From a virus (Duplodnaviria; Heunggongvirae; Uroviricota; Caudoviricetes): DNA of 15,064 nucleotides. Location of the stretch: the IMG/VR virus record IMGVR_UViG_2778261705_000029, one strand, 5' to 3'. A model generated the notes under the pieces. It was not told where the DNA came from, ran no database searches, and saw nothing but the letters and a program-made list of their open reading frames with translations. A program made the position numbers and the translations under genes. Positions 8,982 to 11,021 of the stretch are shown here, one piece after another (the first letter of the stretch is position 1; each line of letters starts with the position of its first letter).

Positions 8982-9078
8982 ACGCCCTCCAAATATTGCG
9001 CGTTATGCATGTTATTTCACGCAATTATTTTGCGCAAGTTGATTTGCTTATCACGCAATAAAGAAATGTAATAAACGC
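8982..9078. promoter_or_regulatory. OR-like divergent promoter/operator region (pR for cro, pRM-like leaderless promoter for cI)
   Basis: TTGC-N7-GCAA-type sites at 8996-9010 (TTGCGCGTTATGCAT) and 9044-9058 (TTGCTTATCACGCAA), plus palindrome CGCAA-N5-TTGCG at 9020-9034. Candidate pRM: -35 TTGCTT 9044-9049, -10 TGTAAT 9067-9072, with the cI ATG at 9079 and no Shine-Dalgarno. Candidate pR on the minus strand: -35 TTGCGC, -10 TAACAT. Confidence 0.55.
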
Positions 9079-9771
9079 ATGAACATAGGAAACCGAGTCA
9101 GACAACTTCGCCAAGCGAAGAACATGAAAATCGCCGATCTCGCTGAAGCGATAGGAGTAGATGCGGCGAACATCTCGCGCTTAGAAACGGGTAAGCAAAA
9201 ACAATTTACCGAACAAACACTGAGTAATATTGCCAAGAGCTTAGGTGTTGATATTGCTGATCTCTTTACCTCTGCCCACAAAAGTAATACTGTATATAAA
9301 AACAGTAATAATGAGGATGTTGCGCAGGTGAAGGATGTGTTCCGTATTGAAATGCTGGATATCAGTGCCAGTGCGGGAAATGGCCTTATCCAGGGCGGTG
9401 ATGTCATTGATGTGATTCATGCCATCGAATACAGAACTGATAATGCTGTATCAATGTTCGGCGGACGACCAGCCAATCACATCAAAGTTATCAACGTTCG
9501 TGGGGACAGTATGTGTCCAACCATTGAGCCAGGAGATCTCATCTTCGTTGATGTCAGCATCAATCAGTTTGATGGTGATGGTATATATGTCTTTGGTTTT
9601 GATGACAAAATATACGTTAAAAGACTTCAAATGATTCCTGACAAACTGCTGGTGATTTCTGATAACCAGATTTACCGTGAATGGGGAATTACTAGCGAAA
9701 ACGAACACCGATTCATGGTCTTTGGAAAGGTCTTAATCAGTCAGTCGCAAACCCTTAAGAGACATAATTAA
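9079..9771 (+). CDS. cI: CI-like prophage repressor (N-terminal HTH plus C-terminal S24 LexA-like autopeptidase domain)
   Basis: N-terminal XRE HTH (VRQLRQAKNMKIADLAEAIGVDAANISRLETGK) and C-terminal S24 peptidase with the Ser nucleophile in GDSMCPTIEPGDLIFVD and the Lys in VKRL. Divergent from cro. Confidence 0.85.
   Translation: MNIGNRVRQLRQAKNMKIADLAEAIGVDAANISRLETGKQKQFTEQTLSNIAKSLGVDIADLFTSAHKSNTVYKNSNNEDVAQVKDVFRIEMLDISASAGNGLIQGGDVIDVIHAIEYRTDNAVSMFGGRPANHIKVINVRGDSMCPTIEPGDLIFVDVSINQFDGDGIYVFGFDDKIYVKRLQMIPDKLLVISDNQIYREWGITSENEHRFMVFGKVLISQSQTLKRHN
9288..9307. promoter_or_regulatory. Near-consensus LexA/SOS box inside the cI coding sequence
   Basis: TACTGTATATAAAAACAGTA against consensus TACTGTATATATATACAGTA: CTGT-N8-ACAG with TA flanks and an all-A/T spacer. 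It is the only CTGT-N8-ACAG I found scanning the window by eye. Lies in the linker-coding part of cI. Confidence 0.55.
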
Positions 9772-9791
9772 CCTCAATATCCCATCCATCG

Positions 9792-9812
9792 GCCACCGAA
9801 AGGTGGCTTTTT
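9792..9812 (+). terminator. Rho-independent terminator immediately downstream of cI
   Basis: Stem gccacc/ggtggc (9792-9797 / 9802-9807), GAAA tetraloop, then TTTTT (9808-9812). Confidence 0.7.
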
Positions 9813-9825
9813 ATTACCTATAAAT

Positions 9826-9876
9826 TTGCATATCTCGCAAATACCACTTGCATATCTCGCAATTTAATTTTATCTT
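9826..9876 (+). promoter_or_regulatory. OL/pL-like operator-promoter: two perfect 15-bp TTGCATATCTCGCAA repeats overlapping a sigma70 promoter
   Basis: Identical repeats at 9826-9840 and 9848-9862, same TTGC-N7-GCAA pattern as the OR sites. -35 TTGCAT 9848-9853, 17-nt spacer, -10 TATCTT 9871-9876, oriented toward the genes on the + strand. Confidence 0.55.
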
Positions 9877-10069
9877 TTATTCCAGACCAACTACAGGATT
9901 ACAACAAAATCTGGTTGCAACACGGTGCATGTGTCGTAAGCAGTCAGTAAATGTCAAAAACGAACAGGCAGGACGCCCACGAAGTAGCCGCCTGGGGCAT
10001 ATGAAGTCCAGGATGATTCGTTGAGTCATGTTGTGCCACTAGGCACTCATGTTAAAGCAGGTGTATGAA

Positions 10070-10345
10070 ATGAAAGTCCAGATTTTAAACAATAACTGTG
10101 AAGTCGTTTGGTCATACGACATAGCCGCCCCTGTAGATCAGAGCGGCGATAGCTGGACCAATGGGAAACATCAGATTATGGCTGGAGTTGTGTTCTCTTT
10201 ACGCCGTGCTTTAGAACAGGCTGAAGTCTTTCCATCAGACCCTGAATGGAAATGGCCTTTTTCTATTTGTCCAAATTCGGAGAGTACATTTCAGAAAATT
10301 GGTCAGAAAGTCGCACTCGAAGAGCATCAGCCAACTGTTTCCTGA
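10070..10345 (+). CDS. Hypothetical protein (91 aa), first gene of the pL-like operon
   Basis: ATG 10070-10072 with AGGTG RBS 6 nt upstream. Not arginine-rich, so not an obvious N homolog. 3' end overlaps the convergent minus-strand gene by 83 bp. Confidence 0.45.
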   Translation: MKVQILNNNCEVVWSYDIAAPVDQSGDSWTNGKHQIMAGVVFSLRRALEQAEVFPSDPEWKWPFSICPNSESTFQKIGQKVALEEHQPTVS

Positions 10346-10508
10346 TTTTTTCAGGTAACTCGTCGGCATCGCAGAAACAACAACGCTCGATCATGTTGAA
10401 AGCCGATTCGTAGAACTGTTTTTGCTGAGTGTCGCTGAGACAGGAAAAGAGCGACGTTACGATGATTTTATTAATTGCATTATCAAGTTCTTTTTCATCA
10501 AAAGTCAT
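10263..10508 (-). CDS. Hypothetical protein (81 aa) convergent with and overlapping the pL-operon first gene
   Basis: ATG 10506-10508 with AAGGAAAA RBS about 7 nt upstream. Contains a CCFC motif. No family recognised. Confidence 0.45.
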   Translation of the reverse strand: MTFDEKELDNAINKIIVTSLFSCLSDTQQKQFYESAFNMIERCCFCDADELPEKIRKQLADALRVRLSDQFSEMYSPNLDK

Positions 10509-10762
10509 TTGATTTTCCTTTTATGTATACGGGCTTAAAAGGATACCACCGAGCCTGAAGTGGTGAAAAGACAGGCACATAACAGCTAAGTATTTTCAAC
10601 CAGAGAGAATCCTTAGCGTTGTGGTGAATGCGGCTCAGCGCACGCGGGTTAAGGTTGAGGCTGACAGTCGACCTTCTGTGGATACCCACCCGCCTGGTGT
10701 GCAACCTTCGCCAGGCACCGGGAGGCACCCGGCACCACAACTTTATGCTGTGTGTAGTCTTA

Positions 10763-10808
10763 GCGGTACCAGCTTGTACCCTTGCTTCCGGCTGGTACCG
10801 TCCTTTTT
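10763..10808 (+). terminator. Terminator-like hairpin (10-bp stem, 17-nt loop, T-run) inside the non-coding island
   Basis: cggtaccagc (10763-10772) pairs with gctggtaccg (10790-10799), followed by tcctttttac. Confidence 0.4.
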
Positions 10809-10897
10809 ACAAAACAGAGAAGAGCATCACCGGACGACGGGCTCATAACCCAATCCATCCGGGCGGCTGCCACCGCAGGTGTTCTTCTCTGTTTTGT
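10809..10897. repeat. Long perfect inverted repeat (15 bp arms, 59-nt structured spacer); candidate structured RNA or cis element
   Basis: acaaaacagagaaga (10809-10823) is the exact reverse complement of tcttctctgttttgt (10883-10897); a further cacc/ggtg pairing lies inside. The region has no credible ORF. Confidence 0.5.
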
Positions 10898-11021
10898 GGA
10901 GAAACTAACCGCCCCTACGGGGGCATTTATGGAAATGTAATTGACTCAATAATCGCCGGACGGTGAGGGCTTCCTTTTACCCGAATTCAGCGCGGTGCAG
11001 CGCATATACGTGGAGAACAAA

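Follow-up and report, generated by a model that had tools for sequence, protein, structure and literature searches.

Two structured RNAs in the early-left leader of an Escherichia coli lambdoid prophage

The stretch of DNA analyzed here, referred to as the window, comprises 15,064 nucleotides (IMG/VR record IMGVR_UViG_2778261705_000029) and represents an E. coli O157:H7 lambdoid prophage that is integrated at thrW. Upstream of its yfdR gene lies a hairpin-dense island of about 430 bp (10560-10990). We estimate, with a probability of roughly 0.7, that this island is the distal part of a long, structured early-left (pL-type) leader that carries two separate RNAs, both on the + strand. Judged from its sequence, the first of these (element 1, 10588/10618-10808) is a divergent, unannotated member of the STnc100/PasD superfamily of prophage small RNAs (sRNAs) and has its own terminator. 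The second (element 2, 10809-10897) forms a conserved three-way junction and heads the early-left operon. Element 1 adds a new variant to a known sRNA family and does so at a new genomic position, and element 2 is undescribed, as far as Rfam and the searched literature show.

Element 1 consists of a closing stem, internal hairpins, a pseudoknot, a linker and a terminator hairpin, which are located as follows.

10618-10741 (+): STnc100-like structured core, a five-helix fold with a pseudoknot, recognized from the RF02076 match and covariation
10618-10626 with 10733-10741 (+): helix P1, from covariation
10630-10634 with 10640-10645 (+): helix P2 with A10642 bulged, from covariation
10651-10657 with 10702-10708 (+): pseudoknot AAGGUUG/CAACCUU, from covariation
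10692-10699 with 10709-10716 (+): helix P4, from covariation
10718-10722 with 10728-10732 (+): helix P5 with loop AGGCA, a helix of the STnc100 family
10742-10762 (+): single-stranded, G/U-rich linker UUUAUGCUGUGUGUAGUCUUA, a candidate base-pairing seed
10763-10808 (+): Rho-independent terminator predicted from sequence and folding, with a 12-bp stem, a 15-17-nt loop, and CC followed by UUUUU

The relationship to STnc100 (RF02076) emerges in a permissive Rfam scan, where positions 1-206 of the 206-position model align to window positions 10588-10810 (+) with 43.0 bits (E 5.3e-8). Copies in SfV, ST64B and the K-12 prophage e14 score 39.5, 35.1 and 29.2 bits, respectively. When Rfam is applied at its gathering thresholds across the window, tRNA is the only family reported. 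Additional family members were collected by scanning viral contigs for the invariant 20-mer CCGGGAGGCACCCGGCACCA. About 19 of the resulting 120 loci are of the window type, and the rest share only GGUGAAU, the P2 hairpin, the P4 hairpin and the 20-mer itself. A model of the core (R1) also detects divergent copies outside its seed at the syntenic place in phage LLS (32.8 bits) and in mEp460 (23.6 bits).

Compensatory changes support the pairing of this core. When P1, P2, P4 and P5 are drawn by hand onto a MAFFT alignment of 36 diverse family members, the window included, 89.7% of the cells are paired, compared with 42-47% when the partners are slid. Fourteen pairs in this alignment have changed on both sides, which none of 500 shuffles matches. 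A model-fitted alignment of 94 distinct hits is 94.5% paired and has compensatory changes in 19 of 26 pairs. Helices P1, P2 and P4 covary in both alignments. Covariation of P5 in the 94-hit alignment is confined to the few copies in which this helix changes. Under the Rfam structure, the P2 sequence of the window seemed not to pair. Bulging the third base from its 3' side brings it into line with the family and gives the canonical five pairs plus a bulge, with three C-G to G-C swaps (columns 17/34, 21/32 and 22/30 of the 36-core alignment).

The pseudoknot joins the segment that follows P2 to the loop of P4. Its strands change in concert, from AAGGUUG/CAACCUU in the window to AAGGCUG/CAGCCUU in phiES15, and to AUCAGC/GCUGGU or CUGGUGU/ACACCGG in others. 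Native partners pair with -12.65 kcal/mol versus -9.50 kcal/mol for swapped partners, a difference reached in 0 of 10000 permutations. This covarying interaction is present family-wide (L006-L125); the displayed consensus structure line of Rfam shows nested pairs only. STnc100-like genes also occur in tandem arrays of three to five members about 250 nt apart (L030 1722-3286, L022 369-993, L067 4376-5465 and L013 2321-3354), several members of which lack the exact 20-nt motif.

The linker downstream of the core contains the motif (A)UUGCUGUGUGUAGUCUU, which is kept in the window-type, ST64B, phiES15, LLS and phiNP RNAs despite their differing cores and terminators and is absent from the mEp460 type. 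This pattern is as expected of a seed sequence, and we infer that the linker has this function. Target prediction for the linker against the window returned just the trivial antisense match and a hit on an unannotated strand.

Following the linker, a G+C-rich stem-loop directly precedes a U-run on the transcribed strand, which is the arrangement that defines a Rho-independent terminator. A consensus terminator scan omits this hairpin because its loop exceeds the 8-nt limit of the scan. A hairpin and T-run are found at this place in every lineage, with a different stem sequence each time; those of E. coli, Salmonella ST64B, Cronobacter phiES15 and phage LLS are wholly unrelated to one another. 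The T-run lies directly before element 2 in 102 of 105 distinct variants. The components of element 2 are listed here together with the conserved features that follow it.

10809-10897 (+): three-way-junction RNA, from the RNAalifold consensus, pair counts and model scores
10809-10828 with 10878-10897 (+): outer 20-bp stem, from folding, whose outer part is formed by 15-bp perfect arms
10830-10862 (+): inner hairpin 1 with tip GGG-CUCAUAA-CCC, from folding
10863-10876 (+): inner hairpin 2, from folding
10898-10905 (+): conserved GGAGAAAC, which reads (G/A)UGGAGAA(A/G) across diverged variants and has no start codon at Shine-Dalgarno distance
10911-10924 (+): small G+C-rich hairpin GCCCC-UACG-GGGGC, replaced compensatorily in relatives

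Homologues of element 2 were gathered by a scan with its inner motif, which found it in 120 viral loci and 26 species genomes. The RNAalifold consensus of these sequences is a three-way junction. In a MAFFT alignment 97.6% of the cells are paired with nine compensatory pairs, and in 38 distinct model-aligned sequences these values are 98.3% and 13. Slid-partner controls reach 37-52%. The small hairpin beyond the junction is likewise replaced by compensatory changes, becoming GACCU/AGGUC in the SfV type and GGCGGU/ACCGCC in ST64B. A mini-ORF (open reading frame; MEK...) that would begin with the (G/A)UG just 3' of the junction was rejected, as its first codon is ACG in one variant and its 'codon' changes are RNA-compensatory rather than synonymous.

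Folding energies of the junction are nearly equal for the + and - strands (-45.5 versus -45.4) and cannot be used to assign its strand. Element 2 is read as a + strand RNA because U.G and G.U pairs are frequent (a U.G pair occurs at one position in 32 of 38 sequences, for example) and because the junction model gives 110.6 bits on the + strand versus 33 bits on the - strand.

The initial annotation of this region had listed four stems, all of which are present where it had placed them and greatly exceed chance expectation. The arms of the terminator-like hairpin (10764-10773/10791-10800) are 100% complementary, can be extended to 12 bp, and are followed by CC and UUUUU, with the U-run ending the hairpin region at 10804-10808; this hairpin folds with a free energy (dG) of -20.9 (z -5.2, 0 of 200 shuffles). 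The 15-bp perfect arms (10809-10823/10883-10897) enclose 59 nt and belong to a 20-bp stem (25 nt at 84%). The 89-nt hairpin that contains them has a dG of -45.5 (z -7.3, 0 of 200 shuffles). The gcctgg/ccaggc stem maps to 10692-10697 and 10711-10716. The cgcccc/ggggc stem corresponds to GCCCC/GGGGC at 10911-10915 and 10920-10924 with a UACG loop (z -3.2). Folding of the whole stretch 10805-10990 gives z -4.5, again with 0 of 200 shuffles.

Among the interpretations offered at that stage, that of a structured regulatory RNA is supported. The left half of the island is the covariation-supported relative of STnc100, the right half is a second covariation-supported RNA structure, and the proposed check for covariation across homologous prophages recovered compensatory pairs in both. 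The proposed search of RNA families succeeded for 10588-10810, which matches STnc100 below the gathering score, and returned no Rfam family for 10809-10897; a search of 10809-10990 with E values up to 10 gave only noise (MIR1094 and PhotoRC-I).

Element 2 is found in prophages of about 25 Enterobacterales species. The genera represented are Escherichia, Citrobacter, Enterobacter, Klebsiella, Kosakonia, Leclercia, Pantoea, Mixta, Erwinia and others, and the outliers among the species matches are one Chryseobacterium assembly and one Acidobacteriaceae metagenome-assembled genome. The junction is kept in mEp460, LLS and phiNP despite a very different upstream RNA core. In phiES15, an STnc100-like core is present with a kil gene downstream, and the junction is absent. 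Most loci have their first ORF 10-50 nt downstream of the junction. This ORF is yfdP-like in 83 of 111 loci, yfdR in the window type and RdgC-like in others. The junction therefore belongs to the operon entry, whichever gene follows, and not to a particular gene.

Several variations on this arrangement were observed. The window prophage lacks yfdP and yfdQ, which are the usual next genes, and in e14 the junction element abuts xisE. In viral contigs, the junction is most commonly preceded by an RNA of another core type (GGUAAUCCGCGAAAUGGCGCGGCGG...) that has the same closing stem. It occurs in L133, L139, L152 and about 30 other loci and is undetected by model R1.

The island and its flanks are 100% identical to those of O157:H7 prophages at thrW/proA. 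On the + strand, the gene order is cI-like repressor, pL-like region, two small ORFs, island, yfdR, two small genes, xis, int and thrW. The + strand is therefore that of the 'leftward' early operon, with the island within the leader of this operon. More precisely, the island is the 3' part of a leader of about 1.1 kb that extends from a cI-controlled, pL-like promoter to yfdR-xis-int. The control region and the upstream part of the leader contain the following features.

8982-9078: cI/cro intergenic operator half-sites, which resemble the TTGCATATCTCGCAA copies
9079-9771 (+): cI-like repressor gene
9791-9815 (+): cI terminator
9826-9840 and 9848-9862 (+): pair of direct TTGCATATCTCGCAA copies immediately 3' of the cI terminator, related to the cI/cro half-sites
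9871-9876 (+): TATCTT of a pL-like promoter sequence, TTGCAT-N17-TATCTT, located 3' of the TTGCATATCTCGCAA copies
10049-10345 (+): small ymfJ-like ORF inside the leader, overlapping the next
10263-10508 (-): small ymfI-like ORF inside the leader, overlapping the previous
10545-10583 (+): leader hairpin ACCAC...GUGGU and, after it, GAAAAGACAGGCACAUAAC; the most upstream part of the structured leader that is widely conserved
10585-10617 (+): P0 hairpin with GCUAAG/CUUAGC arms, an inverted repeat directly 5' of the core, compared with loci L129 and L126

The TTGCATATCTCGCAA copies and TTGCAT-N17-TATCTT are probably the pL promoter and its operators. LLS and phiNP have a promoter and palindromic operators directly upstream of the same structured leader. 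The order of a repressor, a gap without a credible gene, and yfdP/yfdQ/yfdR is common to SfV, ST64B, mEp460, K-12 e14, phiNP, LLS and sal3. Neither of the two small leader ORFs matches Pfam or NCBIfam. The NCBI Prokaryotic Genome Annotation Pipeline (PGAP) calls only the + strand ORF in O157, the homologous stretch of phiNP and LLS has no annotated gene, and one or both of these ORFs may be spurious.

The leader hairpin and GAAAAGACAGGCACAUAAC precede the RNA in sal3, phiES15, LLS and many viral contigs, and Klebsiella phages match window positions 10540-10585 at about 95% identity. This hairpin is terminator-like on the - strand. In sal3 and phiNP, the P0 stem encloses an insert of about 100 nt with T-arm-like motifs. 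Mosaic breakpoints are apparent at about 10760 and at 10910-10922, and sequences downstream differ between phages from 10910-10922 onward. The segment 10760-10922 is 93-100% identical among phages that differ on both sides of it. In ST64B, a match to the isrK sRNA (64 bits, above its gathering score; L003 21-97, -) lies about 2.4 kb from the copy of the element.

A sigma-70 promoter scan found no consensus site on the + strand near the core of the window. Two candidates picked by hand, aaGACA-17-TATttT and GAGAAT, are weak and not conserved in ST64B, and no start site is claimed for them. In canonical STnc100 copies, TTGACA-N17-TAAATT lies a few bases upstream of P1. Element 1 has no consensus promoter of its own and its RNA is therefore probably made from pL on prophage induction. 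Published data on relatives are relevant here. In K-12, the 'ymfH' RNA, which is the e14 homologue, is strongly induced by azidothymidine in a LexA-dependent manner along with xisE and intE, and promoter dissection found the ymfH promoter to be almost inactive. These observations suggest that the window RNA is transcribed from the repressor-controlled pL upon induction.

Other members of the superfamily have been characterized as sRNAs. EcOnc04, EcOnc05, EcOnc06 and EcOnc27 of strain Sakai give Northern blot bands of about 177-247 nt, and the 247-nt EcOnc27 species is destabilized in an hfq mutant. The EcOnc05 probe maps inside a canonical STnc100 core. STnc100_4 has been confirmed by Northern blot, and PasD is described as an Hfq-dependent prophage sRNA related to STnc100 (2026 preprint).

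In the mechanism that we favor, transcription would run from pL, just after cI, through the leader and on to yfdR, yfdS/T, xis and int toward thrW. Transcription of element 1 would yield an RNA with a closing stem, three hairpins, a pseudoknot, an unpaired G/U-rich linker and an intrinsic terminator. This terminator would stop most transcription at 10808, before yfdR-xis-int is reached. By homology with Hfq-bound EcOnc05/06/27 and PasD, the terminated product is most likely a trans-acting sRNA that base pairs through its linker. The junction would be present only on read-through transcripts, as a cis-acting 5' leader of whichever early-left gene comes first. Its most likely roles would be in processing or stability, for example by RNase III, or in control of read-through. 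That a long, near-perfect duplex in a phage early leader marks an RNase III site is a guess. Sequence comparison shows the anatomy, homology, covariation, strand and synteny of the two elements, and from these the start of transcription, dependence on Hfq, and the roles of the linker, the terminator and the junction are inferred.

Several points weigh against this reading. The RF02076 score of element 1 (43) is below the gathering score of 47, so that it goes unreported in standard annotation. The list of 11 STnc100 copies for EDL933 includes none at this locus, and no Hfq cross-linking peak is reported for uninduced Sakai prophage Sp1, located at about 300 kb. Lacking a promoter of its own, element 1 would end a pL transcript of about 0.9 kb unless processing occurs, so that the label 'small RNA' may be wrong. 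The two ORFs of uncertain status (10049-10345, +; 10263-10508, -) intervene between pL and the RNA. The model-fitted alignments (A3 and A6) are biased towards their structures. Finally, a tRNA-like motif in the junction, considered further below, served as the probe for most junction variants, and its conservation is consequently overstated.

The region could instead be a purely cis-acting attenuator that gates pL transcription into yfdR-xis-int, with a terminated RNA that has no function in trans and with read-through depending on either a phage antiterminator protein or the leader RNA. We regard this as unlikely. A terminator is kept in almost all variants between a pL-like promoter and the early-left genes, element 1 lacks a promoter of its own, its e14 homologue is co-induced with xisE and intE, and the window prophage encodes an antitermination protein. 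However, the unpaired linker is more conserved than the neighboring stems, which is typical of a seed, and the stems of the terminator are completely different between lineages. Homologous cores elsewhere are free-standing genes that have their own promoter and terminator and bind Hfq. The initial annotation had likewise suggested a terminator/antiterminator switch. The location of the hairpin and T-run, between the pL-like promoter with its operators and yfdR-xis-int, speaks for the terminator half of this proposal. No antiterminator fold is evident, and no covarying competitor of the terminator stem was seen in the alignments, which were judged by eye and not by a systematic search for alternative pairings.

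A second alternative concerns the long hairpin, which might be a site for processive antitermination, similar to put or nut, that allows RNA polymerase to pass downstream early-left terminators. The junction stands at the head of the early-left operon regardless of the gene that follows, has two inner stem-loops, is strongly conserved and strand-specific, and resembles in its place the HK022 put RNAs downstream of pL. Nevertheless, the junction model (R2) has no match at the put sites of the HK022 genome, a put RNA is a V-shaped pair of stem-loops without a long closing stem, and no boxA/boxB pair was recognized. Such a function is highly unlikely.

The possibility of a small protein arises from existing annotations. 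Two reading frames cross the island.

10628-10966 (+): 112-aa ORF, judged spurious; 'hypothetical protein, frameshifted' in PGAP, with a K-12 homologue named 'YmfH'
10621-10848 (+): 75-aa ORF in another frame, from the ORF list

The K-12 e14 counterpart (L005 2534-2845) is 93% identical and carries the YmfH name. If a YmfH-like protein were encoded, with its gene frameshifted in O157, the hairpins would be incidental. This is very improbable, although the ORFs of 75-112 aa are open and an overexpressed 'ymfH' clone triggered a retron toxin. Indels of 1, 1 and 20 nt separate homologues of the 112-aa ORF region. The phase and starting point of open frames vary from phage to phage, and in phiES15, LLS and mEp460 the core is not covered by any. 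Substitutions are spread evenly over codon positions 1/2/3 (9/9/7 and 15/13/13), searches of the island ORFs against Pfam and NCBIfam matched no family, and the original SfV and ST64B annotations have no gene at this place. Compensatory base-pair changes account for the conservation. We judge the 'YmfH' reading frame to be spurious, as no conserved coding frame for ymfH was found. Earlier wording that the island has no credible ORF needs qualification, since the 75- and 112-aa frames do span it; their lack of frame conservation, codon periodicity and family matches agrees with its substance and also leaves a decayed protein-coding remnant unsupported.

The retron result comes from a preprint, in which overexpressed 'ymfH' triggers RcaT, the toxin of retron-Sen2. 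An RNA would give this outcome equally well, and if ymfH is an RNA, the trigger may be RNA.

It is scarcely credible that the 15-bp arms are the ends of a mobile element like a miniature inverted-repeat transposable element, as the small inverted-repeat element of the initial annotation would be, or a DNA-level palindrome bound by protein. In favor of such readings, the arms are perfect and segment 10760-10922 is common to phages with different flanks on both sides. Against them, changes in one arm are compensated in the other, and the U.G and G.U pairs would become C.A mismatches if the opposite strand were read (110 versus 33 bits by model). The junction is not a mobile repeat because the flanks (TTTTT/GGAGA) show no target-site duplication and all copies are confined to one syntenic position, without dispersal.

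Returning to the favored two-RNA leader, the tip of inner hairpin 1 merits separate discussion. Window positions 10838-10851 (CGGGCUCAUAACCC) share all 14 nt with the anticodon arm of initiator tRNA-fMet (K-12 metY). The shared arm tip consists of three G-C pairs and the loop CUCAUAA. This 14-mer occurs once in the window, where 0 occurrences are expected by chance. In loci that were collected without the tRNA motif, the loop is CUCAUAA in five lineages, CUCAUUA in a Salmonella lineage and UUAAUAA in defective e14. Mimics of tRNA anticodon arms occur in mRNA leaders such as the thrS operator of E. coli, and VapC toxins cut the anticodon arm of initiator tRNA. Judging from this likeness, the junction could act as a decoy or sensor for a VapC-type anticodon nuclease, for methionyl-tRNA synthetase, or for the 30S P site with IF3. 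The literature searched mentions neither this copy of the RNA nor any phage mimic of initiator tRNA.

Inserts that resemble a T-arm or almost a whole tRNA are found in some of the related leaders. In L205, L199, L129 (1545-1660) and L126 (1210-1320), tRNA-like inserts between CACAAC/GUUGUG stems replace the STnc100-like core. They include a D-arm, an anticodon arm and a T-arm (GGGTTCGAATCCC), and those of L205 and L199 lie about 215 nt upstream of the junction element. ARAGORN called nothing in the loci with these cartridges. The STnc100 superfamily may consist of fixed CACAAC/GUUGUG stems around a swappable interior, some of it tRNA-like, rather than of simple base-pairing sRNAs. The combined proposal, in which the junction represents a new class of leader RNA that mimics the anticodon arm of initiator tRNA and the STnc100 superfamily is a pseudoknotted, cartridge-swapping scaffold, is speculative, and we hold it to be doubtful.

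These assignments have consequences for annotation. This RNA is present in 1914 of 5426 complete E. coli genomes, or about one third, K-12 among them, and the K-12 copy is catalogued as the y-ome protein YmfH, which is a probable and widespread misannotation. Reassigning YmfH changes how 'ymfH' phenotypes such as SOS induction and retron triggering are read. The STnc100/PasD superfamily gains a branch that standard Rfam annotation misses, as well as a covarying pseudoknot beyond the displayed Rfam consensus. The junction is a new conserved RNA element at the entry to the xis/int operon, where control of prophage excision would act.

Among known systems, the closest is STnc100 itself (RF02076; EcOnc04/05/06/27 and sRNA103 of E. 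coli O157 prophages). The window copy shares P1, P2, P4 and P5 with this family. Both also have the invariant CACCGGGAGGCACCCGGCACCA and GGUGAAU sequences, end in a U-run terminator, and are located in lambdoid prophages. It differs in the compensatory swaps of P2, in its interior, linker and terminator, and in scoring below the gathering threshold. Canonical copies have their own promoter and occupy the 'moron' site downstream of pR'/stx, where an anti-sRNA converges on them, whereas the window copy has no such promoter and is in the early-left leader beside the immunity region. PasD1 and PasD2 of enteropathogenic E. coli E2348/69, compared here by their published description, are reported to have a common structure and ancestor with STnc100. 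PasD belongs to the late region, where the Q antiterminator gene and lpxR are no more than 10 kb away; in contrast, the window element occupies the early-left region, with cI on one side and yfdR/int on the other.

The arrangement of element 1 also has parallels among short, terminated leaders of phage operons that double as sRNAs. Examples are the 6S RNA of lambda pR'-tR' and StxS of Stx phages. In these, a promoter-proximal terminator is present in an operon that needs antitermination, and the terminated by-product can be a regulatory RNA (PMC7547250). These transcripts originate at a late, Q-dependent promoter, whereas the operon in the window is early-left and its terminated RNA and read-through are predicted.

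For the junction, the HK022 putL and putR sites are comparable as cis-acting structured RNAs at the start of an early phage operon. They have no match to the junction in sequence or structure, and the long closing stem is found in the junction only. Relative to thrS-type mimics and the substrates of VapC, the junction is alike in its 14-nt identity to an anticodon-arm tip, but it copies this tip only, without a T-arm or acceptor mimic.

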